Positions 11,191-32,664 of a stretch of 64,000 nucleotides of DNA are shown piece after piece. The stretch lies in the sequence record ON286975; one strand, given 5' to 3'. The notes under the pieces were generated by a model. It did no database searches. It was not told the DNA's origin and worked only from the letters and a program-made list of their open reading frames with translations. Every line of letters begins with the position of its first letter. The stretch's first letter is position 1. This DNA is from Escherichia phage I29. The position numbers and the translations under genes were made by a program.

Positions 11191-13325
11191 AAGTTGTAAA
11201 ACGGGACGGTAGAGAAGAGTTCTATAACGGAATTAAGGTGATCAAGGCGGCAGAGTCCGCCTTACTTGAGTCTGGACATACTGAAGAAGAAGCTTACCGG
11301 ATCGCTTGTGCGGTTAATGAAGTTGTTGCTAACAATCTGCCAACCGACCAGTGCACGATCTCTGTAAAAAATATCCATATCCTTGTTGAAGATGCTCTTA
11401 TGGATATGGGTTTAAAATGTGCAGCCAGAGAATACATCCAGTATAGACAGACAAGAGATAATAACAGAGAGGCAGGTGGAAAACTGCTTGCAGATATTAG
11501 TGGCTTCTTGGATCGAACTTGTGATGAATTTACAAAAGAAAACGCAAATAAGCCCACTAATCATGTACACACTCATCGTGACCTGCTTGCAGGCATCCTT
11601 AGCAAACACCTTGCATCAACACAGATCCTGCCAGACCGTGTCTCCGAAGAGCACAATAAAGGCTTCATCCATGTGCATGATCTTGACTACTTGATCAGTC
11701 CGTTAACAAACTGTTGTTTGGTAAATTATCCAGATATGCTGGAAAACGGATTCAACATTGGTAACGCCCATGTCAGTAAGCCGAAGTCAATAGGGGTTGC
11801 AACAACAATCCTTAGCCAAATCTCCAGTGCGGTAGCTAGTGCTCAATATGGTGGTCAGACTATGAGCCATATTGATCATTATCTGGCACAGTATGCTGAA
11901 GCGACCTATGAGAAGAACCTTAAATTTTGCCAGGAACATTGGTTGCCAGATGCTGAGACCGTTGCAATGCAAATGACAGATAAAGACGTGTTTGACAGCA
12001 TGCAGACTTTGCTCTATCAAATCAATACGTTAACCTCTGTCAACGGGCAAACTCCATTCATCACATTAAGTTTAGGACTGGATACCTCGGTCTTTGGTAG
12101 AATGATTACCAAAAATTACTTGAAAGTCCACAAAATGGGTCTTGGTGAAGAACGGATCACACCTGTGTTCCCTAAAGTGCTGTTCTTCCTAGAAGAGGGT
12201 GTCAACATGAGCCCTAGAGATCCTAACTATGATTTGAAACGATTAGCTCTGGAATGCTGTGCAGAACGTATCTATCCTGACTTCGTATCTGTACCACTAA
12301 ATAGAAAAGTGACAGGCTCGACAGATGGCAAAGTAACGAGCATGGGTTGCCGGAGTTTTCTTAGCAAATACAATGACTTGGAAACAGGCGAGGAGAAATA
12401 CCTTGGCAGATTTAACTTAGGCGTTGTTAGCCTTAACCTGCCAATGATTGCGGCAAAAGCTAAGACGGAAGGTGTTGATTTCTTTGCAGTTCTTGACGAA
12501 TACTTAGATCTTGCATACGAGGCTCACCTTGTAAGGGTTAACCGTCTAAAAGGAACAAAGGCAGGGCAGAACCCCATCATGTGGTGTGAAGGCGCTCTTG
12601 CTCGCCTGGATCCTGAAGAAAGTATTGATAAACTCTTCTATGACGGGTACGCTTCCATCAGCATTGGGTACATTGGTGTGTATGAAACCTGTCAGATTTT
12701 GGGCAGAGAAGGTGACAAGGCTTTAGCTCTTGGAATCCTTCAGCACATGAGAGATGCTTGTGAGCGATACAAGAAGGAAAGTAGACTAGCATTTAGCTTG
12801 TACGGCACTCCTTCTGAGAGTCTATGCTATAAAGCTGCAACCTGTCTGGATCGTGAATATCCAGAAGTGTTAAAGCACGAGCATGAATATCTCACCAACA
12901 GTTTCCATCAGCCAGTATGGATCAATAGCTCTCCTTTTGATAAGTGGGAGTATGAGGAAGGTTTTGCTATGATCTCCTCCGGTGGCAACATCGGATACGT
13001 AGAGACACCTAACCTGAAAAACAACCTTGATGCTTTAGAGGCTCTTGTTGACTTCGGGTATAAACACATTATGTATTTTGGTATTAACCAACCTGTGGAT
13101 AAATGTCTCAAGTGTGGTTTCTCTGGTGAGTTCAGTGCAACAGCTAAAGGGTTCTGCTGCCCTGCGTGCGGATGCCACGATGAACAATATATCTCAGTGA
13201 TCCGAAGAGTGTCTGGCTATCTCTCCAGCCCGAACAGTAGGCCGTATAACACAGGTAAACAAGCAGAGGTTATCGAACGTGTTAAACATGTTGGGAATGT
13301 AGACTGTTGTCCGTTGAGTAAATAA
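11187..13325 (+). CDS. nrdD: anaerobic ribonucleoside-triphosphate reductase
   Basis: GTG start after GGAGAG; N-terminal ATP-cone (MKVVKRDGREEFY); C-terminal glycyl-radical RVSGYL and CxxC...CxxC. Confidence 0.9.
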   Translation: MKVVKRDGREEFYNGIKVIKAAESALLESGHTEEEAYRIACAVNEVVANNLPTDQCTISVKNIHILVEDALMDMGLKCAAREYIQYRQTRDNNREAGGKLLADISGFLDRTCDEFTKENANKPTNHVHTHRDLLAGILSKHLASTQILPDRVSEEHNKGFIHVHDLDYLISPLTNCCLVNYPDMLENGFNIGNAHVSKPKSIGVATTILSQISSAVASAQYGGQTMSHIDHYLAQYAEATYEKNLKFCQEHWLPDAETVAMQMTDKDVFDSMQTLLYQINTLTSVNGQTPFITLSLGLDTSVFGRMITKNYLKVHKMGLGEERITPVFPKVLFFLEEGVNMSPRDPNYDLKRLALECCAERIYPDFVSVPLNRKVTGSTDGKVTSMGCRSFLSKYNDLETGEEKYLGRFNLGVVSLNLPMIAAKAKTEGVDFFAVLDEYLDLAYEAHLVRVNRLKGTKAGQNPIMWCEGALARLDPEESIDKLFYDGYASISIGYIGVYETCQILGREGDKALALGILQHMRDACERYKKESRLAFSLYGTPSESLCYKAATCLDREYPEVLKHEHEYLTNSFHQPVWINSSPFDKWEYEEGFAMISSGGNIGYVETPNLKNNLDALEALVDFGYKHIMYFGINQPVDKCLKCGFSGEFSATAKGFCCPACGCHDEQYISVIRRVSGYLSSPNSRPYNTGKQAEVIERVKHVGNVDCCPLSK

Positions 13326-13336
13326 GGAAAGAGGTG

Positions 13337-13369
13337 GAGAGCAAGGATGCTCTCATTTTTTTTTTTTTT
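13337..13369 (+). terminator. strong intrinsic terminator after nrdD
   Basis: gagagc-aaggat-gctctc hairpin followed by a 14-T run. Confidence 0.7.
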
Positions 13370-13376
13370 GTTTTTA

Positions 13377-13405
13377 TTGACTTCTATTCCTCTTTTCTAT
13401 AGTAT
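13377..13405 (+). promoter_or_regulatory. sigma70-type promoter
   Basis: TTGACT-17-TAGTAT upstream of ORF 13444. Confidence 0.5.
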
Positions 13406-13443
13406 GCAATATAAAGTGAATAGCGGAAGGGTCTGGTCTGGTA

Positions 13444-14376
13444 ATGAGAAGACTAACAACCGAAGAGTTTATAGAAAAAGCTCAGACTATACATGGTGAC
13501 AAATATGATTACTTCAAAGTGGAGTATAAAAACAACAAGACACCTGTGTGTATAATTTGTCCTGAGCACGGTGAGTTCTGGCAAACCCCTGTGGCACATG
13601 CTTTCAAGAATCATGGTTGTCCAAGGTGTGGTGGGTCAGCGAAAAAGAACACTGAAGAGTTCATAAAAGAGGCTATGGCTGTTCATGGGGACAAGTACGA
13701 TTACTCATTAGTCAAATATGCGAACATGAGAACGCCTGTAAAAATTGTTTGCCCTGAACACGGTGTGTTTGAACAATACCCTGAAAACCACTTATACCAA
13801 AGAAACGGCTGCCCAGAGTGCTATGACTTAAGACGTGGGCAAAGTCAAGCGTTAACCCATAAGGAGCATGCTGCAATTATCCACAAAGCCAACCCAGACA
13901 TAGAAATATTAGAGAAAATTGCCAATGATAACACAAAAGTGCAATGTAGGTGCAAAATTTGTGGGTATAAGTGGTCTGCTAAACCTAATAACCTAAAAAG
14001 TGGTCGTGGCTGCTGTAAATGCGCACAAAATGGATTCTTATCTCATGAGTACGGTAAACTCTACATTATGGTTGATGACTTAGAAGTGCCAACACTTATG
14101 AAAATCGGTGTATGCGTTAAAATGCACAGGAGGAAAAATGAGGTGCTTAACAGTGCTCGTAAATCTGGCGCAGGTGTCCACACTCTTCACGTAGTAAAAA
14201 CATGGAGCGGATCAACTCAAAACATGGTAGATTTAGAAAAATCTGTGCATAAGGCCTTGAGCAAGTATAAAATAAACTTTCCTGTAAAATTTGACGGTAG
14301 CACTGAGTTTTTCTACTACAGGCCTGAAGTGTTTGACACGGTAGAAGAGGTATACAAGAAGATTTGTGGTAAATGA
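13444..14376 (+). CDS. free-standing homing endonuclease-like protein (tandem zinc-ribbon repeats, GIY-YIG-like C-terminus, tentative)
   Basis: Three repeats of HGDKYDY...CPEHGxFxQxP..H...GCPxCGG; C-terminal KLYIMVDD...LMKIGV...RR..E resembles GIY-YIG; inserted between nrdD and nrdG with own promoter and terminator. Confidence 0.45.
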   Translation: MRRLTTEEFIEKAQTIHGDKYDYFKVEYKNNKTPVCIICPEHGEFWQTPVAHAFKNHGCPRCGGSAKKNTEEFIKEAMAVHGDKYDYSLVKYANMRTPVKIVCPEHGVFEQYPENHLYQRNGCPECYDLRRGQSQALTHKEHAAIIHKANPDIEILEKIANDNTKVQCRCKICGYKWSAKPNNLKSGRGCCKCAQNGFLSHEYGKLYIMVDDLEVPTLMKIGVCVKMHRRKNEVLNSARKSGAGVHTLHVVKTWSGSTQNMVDLEKSVHKALSKYKINFPVKFDGSTEFFYYRPEVFDTVEEVYKKICGK

Positions 14377-14428
14377 TTGTAGAAAGATATGCATATCTTA
14401 AACATGCTATTAACTAAGGAGGTGCAGT

Positions 14429-15018: not shown

Positions 15019-15048
15019 TTGACAAAGCTTTGTTTAGATAGGTATAAT
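15019..15048 (+). promoter_or_regulatory. sigma70-type promoter
   Basis: TTGACA-18-TATAAT. Confidence 0.6.
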
Positions 15049-16372: not shown

Positions 16373-16393
16373 AAGGGTGGTTATTCCACCCTT
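16373..16393 (+). terminator. hairpin after phoH
   Basis: aagggtgg-ttatt-ccaccctt; no strong T-run. Confidence 0.35.
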
Positions 16394-16411: not shown

Positions 16412-16440
16412 TTGACAAATAGGTAAGCTTTAGATATTAT
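16412..16440 (+). promoter_or_regulatory. sigma70-type promoter
   Basis: TTGACA-17-TATTAT. Confidence 0.55.
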
Positions 16441-16468: not shown

Positions 16469-16780
16469 ATGGCTACAATACAAGAGAAACTGAATAAAAT
16501 ATACTGCCTGTTTGTCTATAACGGCGAGACAATTTTGGCAAATAAAGGATCCAAGAATGTGTGGACCAAGGACAGCGGTGGTAATATAATTAACTTAGCG
16601 TTGCTACGTGAGCGCCGACACAGATTCTTTATCGAGTCTCGAATTATTGAAAGCAGCACTTGCTACAGAACAGGCGATAAAGTAATTGTTGACAATGATA
16701 CGTGGTATGTGGTAGATTGGCAATCATTGAGTTGTGATGCTTCTGACAATCGTAAGTACTCCATAGTGATTGCTAAATAA
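16469..16780 (+). CDS. hypothetical protein
   Basis: 103-aa ORF downstream of promoter. Confidence 0.5.
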   Translation: MATIQEKLNKIYCLFVYNGETILANKGSKNVWTKDSGGNIINLALLRERRHRFFIESRIIESSTCYRTGDKVIVDNDTWYVVDWQSLSCDASDNRKYSIVIAK

Positions 16781-16840: not shown

Positions 16841-17890
16841 ATGAATTTAACACCTCGCAGCACCATGGTACACGGCATGAAAGAAAAACAGAACGGTTTC
16901 GAACCTATGAGTAATAAAATGTTTGGTATGCCGGGCGGTATCATGGAAACATACAGCTACCCAACACCTGTTGTTGACCACGTTCTTTATATCGACGATT
17001 TGGAGGACCTGCAGGATCATATGTCTCGTCTGCAGACGATCCGTATGGCTCAGCCGGAAGAAAGCATTCGTGTGATCATCAATAGCCCTGGTGGTTGCGT
17101 GCACATTGCAATGGCTTATCTGCAGGCATTCCGCGAGTCTCAGGCAAGCGTTGTTGCACATGCTGAAGGGATGTGCTGCTCTGCTGGAACAATCTTATGG
17201 CTTGGTTGCAAAGAACGTACTGTGGCTCCGGACACAGAATTTATGTTCCACTACTATCAAGGTGGCACTTATGGTAACGGTGTTAACATGAATACTCAGG
17301 TCAGCTACTGGAAAAAACGTTTTGAACACCTGATCGAAAAATACTACGGTGGGGTGCTGACAGAAGATGAGATCGCATCCATCACAGCTGGTGGCGAAGT
17401 GTGGTTGGACGGAGAAGAGTTGGCAGCACGCACTGGAGCTATTATTCTGGATGAAGGCAACATACAACGCATCCAGAACGGACAAAAACCGAAAAAGCTT
17501 CTGGCAAAAGGTGATGAAGAAGGCGTGTTAGGTGAAGCAGGTCTTCCGGAGATTCATCAGTGCACATCTTTAGATGAGTTAGTTCATGCTGTTGAATCTG
17601 CAAAAGCGGGTGGTTCGAAAGGTGATGTTCACACTGTGTTCCTGAATCTGCAGATGGAAAGTGGCGAGACCGTCCGAATTGCCCTGGGTGAGATTACTTC
17701 AGAAGATCTGCAGAGATTCTCTGTCGTTGAACTTCAGGATATTCTGTCTCAATTGAAGACTACTCTGAACGGCGGTGAAGAGGTTAAGGTGAAAGATAAG
17801 ACTCGCAAGCGTCTTGTGGACAATATTATTAAAACAGCAAAAGAGCTCAATGAAAAAATCCTGGGTGCAGGAATTGTCGAAGAAGCTTAA
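16841..17890 (+). CDS. ClpP-like serine peptidase (S14 family) with C-terminal extension
   Basis: IINSPGGCVHIAMAYLQAF ~ ClpP YINSPGG; GMCCSAGT (Ser nucleophile); MFHYYQGG (His); AAGGA RBS. Confidence 0.6.
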   Translation: MNLTPRSTMVHGMKEKQNGFEPMSNKMFGMPGGIMETYSYPTPVVDHVLYIDDLEDLQDHMSRLQTIRMAQPEESIRVIINSPGGCVHIAMAYLQAFRESQASVVAHAEGMCCSAGTILWLGCKERTVAPDTEFMFHYYQGGTYGNGVNMNTQVSYWKKRFEHLIEKYYGGVLTEDEIASITAGGEVWLDGEELAARTGAIILDEGNIQRIQNGQKPKKLLAKGDEEGVLGEAGLPEIHQCTSLDELVHAVESAKAGGSKGDVHTVFLNLQMESGETVRIALGEITSEDLQRFSVVELQDILSQLKTTLNGGEEVKVKDKTRKRLVDNIIKTAKELNEKILGAGIVEEA

Positions 17891-17903: not shown

Positions 17904-17925
17904 AGCCCTCTTCGGAGGGCTTTTA
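17904..17925 (+). terminator. intrinsic terminator
   Basis: agccctc-ttcg-gagggct followed by TTTT. Confidence 0.65.
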
Positions 17926-17941
17926 TGATCTGGAGATTTGC

Positions 17942-18475
17942 ATGACTTGTGCTAGAAAACCTGATGAACAACGTAACGCCTACGATGAGTATGTGACACC
18001 GGAGTGGTGTGCAGAAGGGCTGTATGACCTTATTCCGTTCCCAGAAGACTGGACCTACTTAGAGCCTTGCAGGAATAGTGCCTCAGGTGTGTTCTACTCC
18101 CGTATGCCGTTAGGATCTGCATGGGGAGAAATCCAAGAAGGTGTTGACTATCTGAATACAGAATACAACCATGTTGACTGTATTATCACCAACCCGCCGT
18201 ACAGCCTGGCTCGTGAGTTTGTGGACAAGGCGTTGAAAGATGCCGACGTAGTTATTATGCTTTTGCGTCTTAATTTTCTGGAAAGCAAGGCCAGATTTGA
18301 ATGGTGGCTTGATAATGCACCTACCACTGTGATCACAATATCTAAGCGTCCGTCATTCCAATCTAATGGTAGAACGGATGGGCAGGCATATGCATATTTT
18401 GTGTGGGATAAGAAAAACCGTTTAGACTTGCCGCCATTTATGTGGTTGGCACCCCCAGAGGTAGACCTGAAATGA
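17942..18475 (+). CDS. small phage Dam-like DNA N6-adenine methyltransferase
   Basis: DCIITNPPYS (motif IV NPPY) and YVTPEW; 177 aa. Confidence 0.6.
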   Translation: MTCARKPDEQRNAYDEYVTPEWCAEGLYDLIPFPEDWTYLEPCRNSASGVFYSRMPLGSAWGEIQEGVDYLNTEYNHVDCIITNPPYSLAREFVDKALKDADVVIMLLRLNFLESKARFEWWLDNAPTTVITISKRPSFQSNGRTDGQAYAYFVWDKKNRLDLPPFMWLAPPEVDLK

Positions 18476-18756
18476 AAATGAGTGCTAAGGACAAATTACA
18501 CCAGTTAGCGCTAAAACGTCCTGTAACGCTCCCTGACGAGCTTAACTCCATTTATGATGCGATTGTAGGGGAGATACAAAATAAAGCGTTAGCAGGCTTT
18601 CTGGGATGCGGATTTTCGATAAATCTACCGTCGCATCTCTCAGATTACTTCCCGCACATTGTTGGAGATTTAAGGGCAGGAGGTTTGCAGGTAGATGTTG
18701 TCGGCATCTCTCCAGAGAAAAATAACACGGTTGCCTACTTGACAGTAACCTGGTAG
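18472..18756 (+). CDS. hypothetical protein
   Basis: ATG overlaps upstream stop (ATGA); GAGGT RBS. Confidence 0.45.
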   Translation: MKMSAKDKLHQLALKRPVTLPDELNSIYDAIVGEIQNKALAGFLGCGFSINLPSHLSDYFPHIVGDLRAGGLQVDVVGISPEKNNTVAYLTVTW

Positions 18757-30850: not shown

Positions 30851-31990
30851 CATACTCTACCTGTCTGATCAATTTCCCCAACCACATCCTCCATATTTTC
30901 CCTGTCTGTACTACCCCTGCCCCGCCGTGAGTCCCGTCATATCTGGCTTTCCAGCAAATATCACACCCACAAATATCATTGCCTGAAGAGGGTTTCATCT
31001 CATAATATATGCCTTACCTGAAGAGCGCTTCATACACCACGTAATTTTTTTTTTAATTGACCCCCTCCCCGCCGCTGGAGAGGTTGGCTTTTCCCACACA
31101 GACCTGAAGAGTCAGCCAGAAATATCTGAACAGGCCCAATTCTACCACGATTTTGACCTGACCTACAGGAGTGCTGCCAGGCGGACGAAATGGGAATCAT
31201 TCTCATTCTTATAACAATTCTCAAATATCGAGGCAGTGAGGCAAATTAATAGGTGAGGCCGTTCACACAATGGCACAACATTTGCAACCTATCTTGTGGG
31301 AGTGAATGAGAATACCTATCATTGTGAGAATAGTTATCATTACGGGCAATTTAACATAATACCCATTATGCGCACCGCTGGTGATACATACAGGGAAAAT
31401 ATGGAGGATGTGGTTGGGGAAATTGATCAGACAGGTAGAGTATGCATACTCTACCTGTCTGATCAATTTCCCCAACCACATCCTCCATATTTTCCCTGTC
31501 TGTACTACCCCTGCCCCGCCGTGAGTCCCGTCATATCTGGCTTTCCAGCAAATATCACACCCACAAATATCATTGCCTGAAGAGGGTTTCATCTCATAAT
31601 ATATGCCTTACCTGAAGAGCGCTTCATACACCACGTAATTTTTTTTTTAATTGACCCCCTCCCCGCCGCTGGAGAGGTTGGCTTTTCCCACACAGACCTG
31701 AAGAGTCAGCCAGAAATATCTGAACAGGCCCAATTCTACCACGATTTTGACCTGACCTACAGGAGTGCTGCCAGGCGGACGAAATGGGAATCATTCTCAT
31801 TCTTATAACAATTCTCAAATATCGAGGCAGTGAGGCAAATTAATAGGTGAGGCCGTTCACACAATGGCACAACATTTGCAACCTATCTTGTGGGAGTGAA
31901 TGAGAATACCTATCATTGTGAGAATAGTTATCATTACGGGCAATTTAACATAATACCCATTATGCGCACCGCTGGTGATACATACAGGGA
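30851..31990. repeat. tandem direct repeat, 594-bp unit x 1.9 copies
   Basis: 30851-31444 is repeated at 31445-31990 with identical sequence where compared; unit contains three CCTGAAGAG motifs and a T10 run. Confidence 0.9.
31393..31496. repeat. perfect 104-bp palindrome at the tandem-repeat junction
   Basis: gggaaaatatggaggatgtggttggggaaattgatcagacaggtagagtatg is immediately followed by its exact reverse complement. Confidence 0.9.
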
Positions 31991-32272
31991 TTGATAACAT
32001 GAGTTACAGTTTACACACATAACAATTATATTTCTTACTATTTGTGTGGGATATAGTTAGCAACCAATAGATTAGATATTGACCTGTAGACTTCCAACCG
32101 TCTAGACGTCTAAACGCCCACACAACAAGGCTTATACATACACAACTGAATGTAAACAGGGCCGCAAAAATGCTACCATACCAGATTGTAAATTTTCATG
32201 CAGCACTTGACAAAGAGGAGAAAAACTTGTCTGACATAATGGTGACACTGAACATAATTGACATGCCTGACT

Positions 32273-32372
32273 GTTTACGCTATCACTATTCACTCCCTTT
32301 ACTGTTTACATTCTCAATAGTTTACATGTCTAATAGTTTACATAGCTAACTGTTCACGCATAGATTGTTTAC
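32273..32372. repeat. iteron-like array of GTTTAC(A) motifs
   Basis: Six (A/T)GTTTACA-like sites; the last five are spaced 15-17 bp apart (32304, 32320, 32337, 32352, 32367). Confidence 0.6.
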
Positions 32373-32385
32373 TCAAAAATGATAA

Positions 32386-32664
32386 GCCATGCCATTCGTT
32401 TGCATGATAAAGATTAGCAAGTTAATAATCTTTCGCTGGCTATGCCAGGTGACTAGGTCACCCCTTCGGGCGTTCCTATGACATAATATAAAAGCAGGGC
32501 AACTATTAGCAGATCTATAGTTGCCTTGCTTGTTATGTCATGATTAACTAAATACAAGGCAACTATGATCTGATTAATAGATTGCAGACAAACTATCACG
32601 GGGGTGATGGTTACTGCTTTTATATTATGTCGCGACTCCGTCGCGCCATGCCATTCGTTTGCAT
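32386..32664. repeat. symmetric element: paired 20-mers flanking inverted repeats
   Basis: gccatgccattcgtttgcat at 32386 and 32645; palindrome ggtgactaggtcacc; inverted 19-mers tgacataatataaaagcag / ctgcttttatattatgtc; GGCAACTAT x4 in both orientations. Confidence 0.6.

Follow-up and report, generated by a model that had tools for sequence, protein, structure and literature searches.

The 64,000-nucleotide (nt) stretch of Escherichia phage I29 DNA analysed here (sequence record ON286975; hereafter the window) carries a gene for a ClpP-like protein of 349 amino acids (aa). On balance, this protein is probably an accessory, non-structural serine peptidase of the ClpP fold, with Ser114 and His137 as catalytic residues and Glu186 at the third position of the triad. 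Five lines of evidence agree that it is not the head (prohead) protease. It belongs to an accessory protease family that is widespread in large virulent phages and is usually linked to a gene for a PhoH-like ATPase. The gene and the parts of its product map to the window as follows.

16841-17890, plus strand: coding sequence (CDS) of the ClpP-like protease, 349 aa, ortholog of rV5 gp122, bas49_0178 and bas54_0171, with an AAGGA ribosome-binding site 6 nt upstream
16973-17500, plus strand: ClpP-fold catalytic core, residues 45-220, from AlphaFold, Foldseek and Pfam
17180-17182, plus strand: codon of the nucleophile Ser114, aligned with E. coli ClpP Ser97
17249-17251, plus strand: codon of the catalytic His137, equivalent to E. 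coli ClpP His122 in the alignment
17396-17398, plus strand: codon of Glu186, aligned with ClpP Asp171, the third residue of the triad
17633-17869, plus strand: lineage-specific C-terminal domain, residues ~265-343, a beta-hairpin and three helices with conserved F293, E297, L298, R322 and L325

A preliminary description of this DNA had recognised a ClpP-like serine protease from three motifs, and this assignment is borne out. The motifs INSPGG (residues 80-85), GMCCSAGT (110-117, containing Ser114) and MFHYYQGG (135-142, containing His137) are present as stated, the Pfam model CLP_protease matched residues 59-168 with 47 bits (cutoff 20.2), and the alignment to solved ClpP structures spans both the Ser and the His motif. 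In an AlphaFold monomer model computed with 36 homologs as input, the core (residues 45-220) reached a predicted local distance difference test score (pLDDT) of ~90 and contained the handle helix (residues 150-169), while the N-terminus (1-40) and a linker (223-263) were disordered. The C-terminal extension pointed out in the same description was resolved by this model into the disordered linker and a domain (~265-343) that was folded with moderate confidence. Foldseek aligned the core with many ClpP structures at a target-normalised template modelling (TM) score of ~0.7 across ~170 residues. Models for S49 SppA, SDH-type and NfeD proteins all stayed below their cutoffs (NfeD1b_N 19 vs 40 bits; SDH_protease 15.7 vs 31.3; TIGR00706 SppA 14.4 vs 155).

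To place the protein among other ClpP-like proteins of phages, we compared it by profile, tree and genomic context. It matched phrog_5410 over its full length (residues 24-345, E=2e-154) and phrog_1827 with E=3e-40. A family profile built from nine lineages of early-region ClpP-like proteins left a gap from 144 to 78 bits between this accessory family and the remaining ClpP-like proteins. All three below-gap proteins reside in head modules, ordered either TerL-x-protease-portal-major capsid protein (MCP) or protease-gpD-like-gpE-like; head-module placement was found for none of the sampled accessory loci above the gap. A neighbour-joining tree (158 core columns, Poisson distance, 300 bootstraps) separated 58 accessory sequences from 39 others, namely 38 of the head-module type and E. 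coli ClpP, in 232 of the 300 replicates. The class labels in this tree were taken from the profile score, so that the independent evidence is the genomic context. By score, tree and context, the protein falls into a discrete family (phrog_5410/1827), apart from the ClpP-like proteases of head modules.

Members of the family were found in rV5-like phages, in ICP1 (gp211), Pakpunavirus PaP1 (gp041) and Otagovirus phiPsa267 (gp047), in T5-like Sugarlandvirus, in an N4-like Alteromonas phage and a T4-like vibriophage, in Acinetobacter phiAB441, Rheinheimera Barbavirus, Pseudoalteromonas PH357 and Vibrio 5P1c, and in metagenomic contigs. At every sampled locus, the surroundings consist of replication or nucleotide-metabolism genes. 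The position of the gene in a DNA-metabolism cluster, which had been taken as unusual for a phage ClpP-like protein, is therefore the rule for this large, catalogued family, as seen in rV5-like, ICP1, Otagovirus, Pakpunavirus, T5-like, T4-like and N4-like phages. In T5-like phages and in contigs, the accessory gene lies between a deoxynucleoside monophosphate (dNMP) kinase gene and genes for holin and endolysin, a conserved arrangement that differs from the PhoH-linked one.

The phrog_1827-type proteins (ICP1 gp211, PaP1 gp041, phiPsa267 gp047 and those of Barbavirus, Sugarlandvirus, the N4-like phage and the T4-like vibriophage) are 25-35% identical to the window protein in the core and share its Ser and His without exception. 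Like the window gene, their genes occupy replication or nucleotide-metabolism modules and never head modules, often with PhoH directly upstream. What differs is the C-terminal appendage: PaP1 has none, several members have short coiled tails, ICP1 has an unrelated extension of ~150 aa, and the folded domain described above is limited to Vequintavirinae-type proteins. Such variable appendages on a shared core are consistent with lineage-specific recognition of partners or substrates. A HeH/Rho_N-like identity of the C-terminal domain found no support in profiles.

Ser114 and His137 proved invariant in all 96 phage sequences compared (58 of 58 in the accessory family and 38 of 38 of the head-module type). 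The GG of the oxyanion region and the SAG motif are likewise invariant among accessory-family members. Because this conservation extends over 58 members down to ~25% identity, it argues for selection on catalysis. The column equivalent to Asp171 is not strictly acidic in the accessory family, where Asp occurs in 18, Glu in 11, Gln in 23 and Asn in 6 sequences. Gln or Asn thus fills it in 29 of 58 accessory proteins, vs Asp or Glu in 36 of 38 head-module ClpP-like proteases. Judged from these alignments, the requirement for a third triad residue looks relaxed or altered in the accessory family.

The gene is real, ordinary and already known: its annotation dates back to the rV5 genome paper, PHROGs includes it, and a genome-wide transposon screen has covered it. 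In the 2013 rV5 paper (PMC3606486, Table S3), gp122 is listed as a “ClpP (ATP-dependent) protease subunit” of 349 aa with its best match in ICP1. More than 100 Vequintavirus (rV5-like) E. coli phages match the window region with 98-99% identity, and phage ime encodes the same ClpP-like protein (100% identity); the labels used in the records include “ClpP-like protease”, “ATP-dependent protease subunit” and “hypothetical protein”. rV5 gp122 and the BASEL orthologs bas49_0178 (EmilHeitz) and bas54_0171 (MaxBurger) are the same gene, with 99-100% identity, a length of 349 aa, the same neighbours (PhoH, small open reading frame (ORF), ClpP-like gene, methyltransferase), the same predicted promoter P121 and terminator t122, and no difference of substance. 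About 19 GenBank records titled “Campylobacter phage” (e.g. MG065635, MG065653 and MG065662) are also 98-99% identical to rV5-like E. coli phages here and probably represent mislabelled or contaminant assemblies.

To locate the head genes, we used the EmilHeitz genome, in which the window corresponds to 61.5-127.0 kilobases (kb). Its head module, at 0.7-6.8 kb, comprises TerL, portal, a 139-aa “prohead protease”, scaffold, decoration protein and MCP, and the 139-aa protease matched Pfam Peptidase_S78_2 (XkdF) with 65 bits (cutoff 24). The ClpP-like gene lies at 109.4-110.5 kb on the opposite strand. No structural genes occur in the window, as the preliminary description had stated for the neighbourhood of the gene. 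Counted across the genome ends, the head module starts ~13.6 kb past the left end of the window and ~30 kb from the ClpP-like gene, so that it is not immediately adjacent to this DNA, and the protein falls in a clade separate from the head-module proteases.

The two proteases also differ in their tolerance of insertions. HIDEN-SEQ, a saturating transposon mutagenesis of Bas54 (MaxBurger), is described in a preprint (doi 10.1101/2025.11.20.689424); the Bas54 ClpP-like protein is identical to the window protein at 347 of 349 residues. The preprint gives the following numbers of TA sites hit and classifications.

Bas54 S78 prohead protease: 1 of 24, Essential
Bas54 portal: 0 of 84, Essential
Bas54 scaffold: 0 of 51, Essential
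Bas54 MCP: 0 of 47, Essential
Bas54 ClpP-like gene: 28 of 44 (saturation 0.64), Intermediate
Bas54 small upstream ORF: 25 of 27, Non-essential
Bas54 PhoH: 30 of 32, Non-essential
Bas54 methyltransferase: 33 of 34, Non-essential

In the rows examined of the competition table, insertions in the ClpP-like gene had mean counts of 127 vs 149 (log2 fold change 0.23, p=0.80), i.e. no conditional effect. The gene is dispensable in the laboratory on E. coli K-12. The host-takeover role that the preliminary description raised as a possibility is so far unsupported. The earlier doubt that this ClpP-like protein serves as a prohead protease is thereby upheld: the head module has its own essential S78 protease, a 99%-identical ortholog tolerates transposons, and the protein is set apart from head-module ClpP-like proteases.

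The genes and signals around the ClpP-like gene are listed below.

15019-15048, plus strand: predicted PhoH promoter, matching the sigma70 consensus at 12 of 12 positions in a scan; compare rV5 promoter P118
15579-16367, plus strand: PhoH-like P-loop ATPase, rV5 gp120 ortholog, Pfam PhoH 160 bits, in its own transcription unit
16375-16391, plus strand: hairpin GGGTGG-ttatt-CCACCC directly downstream of the PhoH stop, read from the sequence
16412-16440, plus strand: sigma70-type promoter-like site TTGACA-N17-TATTAT, an 11 of 12 match in the scan, equal to P121 predicted in rV5 Table S4
16469-16780, plus strand: small ORF of 103 aa, rV5 gp121 ortholog, the sole ORF between PhoH and the ClpP-like gene and predicted to be co-transcribed with the latter
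17904-17926, plus strand: intrinsic-terminator-like hairpin A-GCCCTC-TTCG-GAGGGC-TTTTAT, 14 nt past the ClpP-like stop, equal to t122 of rV5 Table S4 (-14.9 kcal/mol)
17942-18475, plus strand: N6-adenine methyltransferase-like gene with weak Pfam Dam/EcoRI_methylase matches below cutoff, a conserved downstream neighbour throughout Vequintavirinae

The phoH and methyltransferase genes named earlier as neighbours indeed flank the ClpP-like gene, with the one 103-aa ORF between PhoH and the protease and 474 nt from the PhoH end to the ClpP-like start codon. The wider order in the window is NrdA/B, NrdD/G, PhoH, ClpP-like, methyltransferase. Across Vequintavirinae, a block of PhoH, DprA-like, two small ORFs, ClpP-like and DNA methyltransferase is conserved; methyltransferase orthologs with 60-66% identity follow the ClpP-like gene directly in Seunavirus-like, Mydovirus and Certrevirus phages, and weak homologs of the small ORF sit two genes upstream of it in Seunavirus-like and Mydovirus phages. 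Pfam and PADLOC searches gave no match for the small ORF, and in PADLOC neither it nor the ClpP-like protease matched a defence system. The ORF at 18442-18756 (plus strand, 104 aa) overlaps the end of the methyltransferase gene and is the bas54_0169 ortholog by position. Unlike its non-essential neighbours, bas54_0169 showed low transposon saturation (8 of 19 sites, read counts 1.8 and 0.5) in the HIDEN-SEQ data, and the small ORF may be an important gene.

Because the promoter at 16412-16440 is followed by both ORFs and then by the terminator at 17904-17926, the small ORF and the ClpP-like gene appear to form a two-gene unit that is predicted to be read by unmodified host RNA polymerase from a host-sigma70-type promoter to an intrinsic terminator. 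The rV5 authors described a separate late-promoter motif upstream of structural genes (PMC3606486). The hairpin at 16375-16391 may act as a weak terminator or attenuator that separates the PhoH and ClpP-like units; its T-tract is poor, and it was not called in the consensus scan. As the unit lies in the arm of the rV5-like genome that is devoted to replication and nucleotide metabolism, its product would be expected in the cytoplasm in early to mid infection. ICP1 supports an early or middle timing by analogy, with its gp176-gp211 nucleotide-metabolism block peaking at 12 min, in the middle phase, and its capsid cluster late (PMC7567579).

Once made, the peptidase would cleave host and/or phage proteins or peptides, presumably without the pocket at which ClpX/ClpA canonically dock. 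Recognition of partners or substrates, or oligomerisation, may be provided by the C-terminal domain that is specific to this lineage and perhaps also by the disordered N-terminus. Its benefit to the phage would be modest and dependent on conditions rather than an essential function, with capsid maturation left to the different, essential S78/XkdF-type protease of the head module.

Several points weigh against this account. With Gln or Asn as third triad residue in every second family member, catalytic efficiency is uncertain, and our literature search returned annotations only, with no biochemistry on proteolysis, oligomeric state, substrates or partners for any family member. The CRISPRi-ART paper and two other transposon papers did not have the ClpP-like gene among the genes they cover. 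The transposon data come from a preprint, and the “intermediate” class that it assigns is ambiguous, as it could reflect slightly reduced fitness, polar effects or tolerance confined to certain domains. For rV5-like phages, the timing of expression is a prediction, and the docking-pocket comparison given below draws on an alignment of ~20% identity.

To follow up the neighbouring ATPase gene, we surveyed its linkage to the ClpP-like gene in other phages. Among at least nine lineages with a co-oriented PhoH gene no more than three genes upstream of a ClpP-like gene are the following.

Vequintavirinae, ICP1, Acinetobacter phiAB441 and Vibrio 5P1c: PhoH upstream, same strand
Otagovirus, Barbavirus and PH357: spacing of an 8-nt overlap, 54 nt and 12 nt, respectively
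Metagenomic contigs: 12 nt in a Barba-like contig, 2 nt in a DNA-polymerase-A-bearing contig and an 8-nt overlap in a third

For Alteromonas phage V22, such a pair (CDS-146 and CDS-147) is listed without comment (PMC7289586). Searching 50,697 phage records by tblastn with a chimeric query of PhoH and the ClpP core, we found an adjacent, co-oriented pair in at least 316 records, with either half matched in 3370. The gene phoH itself is widely used as a marker for marine viruses. We found no discussion of the recurrent pairing in the searchable literature. An adenine methyltransferase of varying family often lies downstream of the pair (in the window, Barbavirus and the P0042 and P0083 contigs). 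An apparent fusion in Pseudoalteromonas PH357, suggested by tblastn, was rejected, as it consists of two same-frame ORFs 12 nt apart.

This linkage raises the alternative that the ClpP-like protease and the PhoH-like ATPase constitute a two-component phage module, either physically, as an ATPase-peptidase complex, or through a shared pathway in which each takes one step, e.g. a coupled turnover of RNA and protein. We consider such a module unlikely, even though same-strand PhoH precedes the ClpP-like gene in Vequintavirinae, ICP1, Otagovirus, phiAB441, Barbavirus, V22, PH357, 5P1c and two metagenomic lineages, the gaps are often 2-12 nt or an 8-nt overlap, and the flanking genes of the pair differ among lineages. 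A fused two-domain protein would outscore every other match in a two-domain profile search, yet none was present among the top matches. In the window, the two genes have separate predicted promoters and a hairpin between them, and each is individually dispensable in Bas54 according to the transposon data. Pakpunavirus, T5-like, T4-like and N4-like members of the family have no adjacent PhoH, and most PhoH-bearing phages have no adjacent ClpP-like gene. PhoH is, moreover, a helicase-like P-loop ATPase and not an AAA+ unfoldase. Finally, the wider order ribonucleotide reductase (RNR)-PhoH-ClpP-ligase is common to several ~130-kb myophages, so that part of the linkage may be inherited synteny.

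A second alternative takes up the label “ATP-dependent protease subunit” carried by many records and sees in the protein a proteolytic subunit that recruits host ClpX or ClpA, which would redirect the host Clp machinery in infection. The protein shares with cellular ClpP (MEROPS S14; E. coli ClpP, PDB 1tyf) the fold, the Ser and His positions, invariant throughout the family, and the handle helix. It differs from cellular ClpP in its low identity (~20% to the E. coli protein), its replaced N-terminal axial loop and helix A, its non-conserved IGF pocket, its additional C-terminal domain and its third triad residue, where Asp171 is Glu in the window protein and D, E, Q or N across the accessory family. 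Curated ClpP models scored far below their cutoffs (TIGR00493 33.2 vs 308.6; NF009205 38.8 vs 228; NF001368 37.9 vs 249). The pocket into which the IGF/IGL loop docks is formed in E. coli ClpP by Y60, Y62, F82, I90, M92, F112 and L114; in an alignment of ~20% identity these columns hold R77, I79, E99, H107, E109, T127 and A129. Five of the seven (R77, E99, H107, E109 and T127) are polar or charged and are invariantly so within Vequintavirinae, and at three of the seven pocket columns, the fraction of bulky hydrophobic residues across the accessory family is ≤0.14. In place of the axial loop and helix A of the ClpP N-terminus, the protein has an unrelated, non-aligning segment (residues 1-44) that is predicted to be disordered (pLDDT <50). 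Canonical docking of ClpX or ClpA thus appears unlikely from sequence comparison, and recruitment of these host ATPases is, in our estimation, quite improbable. Given the lack of conservation in the docking pocket, the missing N-terminal loop and helix A and the low scores with curated ClpP models, the label “ATP-dependent protease subunit” is unsupported.

Much less probable still is a non-catalytic or regulatory role, for instance as a chaperone-like scaffold or as a protein that inhibits host ClpP complexes or serves as a decoy for them. Such a role would fit the Gln or Asn that half of the family has as third triad residue, the fact that proteolysis by family members is so far deduced rather than demonstrated, and the dispensability seen in the Bas54 data. 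Against it stand Ser114, His137, the oxyanion GG and the SAG motif, kept in all 58 members as expected under selection on catalysis, and co-assembly with host ClpP is unlikely given the ~20% identity.

The closest curated profile family is that of the ClpP-related head-maturation proteases (NF045542; PHROGs 1684, 94, 2976 and 133; lambda-like protease-scaffold genes upstream of gpD-/gpE-type genes), which share the ClpP fold and the Ser/His pair. NF045542 was the best NCBIfam match of the window protein, several head-maturation-protease PHROGs matched it at E values from 1e-22 to 1e-14, and some head-module ClpP-like proteases, too, have C-terminal extensions of ~150 aa. T4-like and T5-like phages, which carry accessory-family members, have head proteases of their own, gp21 and pb11. 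In ICP1, the late capsid cluster includes a predicted capsid protease of its own, gp125 (PMC7567579). In virion mass spectrometry of rV5, gp122 was not among the 19 proteins detected, which is weak evidence because the survey was shallow. That the ClpP-like protein might nevertheless be the head-maturation protease, or an additional one, with a gene apart from the head genes and with its C-terminal extension as a scaffold-like capsid-targeting domain, is highly implausible in view of an NF045542 score of half the curated cutoff (60.6 vs 120 bits), a separate clade, a different genomic module, ~30 kb away from the head genes and on the other strand, a sigma70-type promoter instead of the rV5 late-promoter motif, and a tolerance of insertions that contrasts with the dedicated, essential S78 protease between portal and scaffold.

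Elsewhere in the window, two further regions stood out in the comparison with EmilHeitz. Positions 13289-14416 are missing from EmilHeitz at the matching place between the NrdD and NrdG regions; the ORF within them (13444-14376, plus strand, 310 aa) contains repeated HGDKYDY...CPEHG...CP.C modules and, from these motifs, looks like a free-standing insertion of the homing-endonuclease type. EmilHeitz instead has a different endonuclease within nrdD. At ~31170-32480, a strand-switch region with ~2 kb of non-coding DNA separates divergent gene arms, and the GC skew changes sign near 30 kb. Positions 31168-31396 and 31762-32242 both map onto one EmilHeitz interval (~96.1-95.6 kb), which indicates a local duplication or repeat in the window. 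The equivalent intergenic region of Bas54 is reported to be without transposon insertions in the HIDEN-SEQ preprint (doi 10.1101/2025.11.20.689424), suggesting that it holds an essential cis element, e.g. an origin.

The reading of the window protein as an accessory, non-structural peptidase is in the first place corrective. The ClpP-like gene should not be read as a misplaced prohead protease, and its common designation as an ATP-dependent protease subunit is without support. The most useful lead is the recurrence of the PhoH/ClpP-like pair in otherwise unrelated virulent phages, which offers a handle on the function of both proteins. If the two did act as a module, phage phoH, long unexplained, would be given a specific partner and a biochemical function open to testing.

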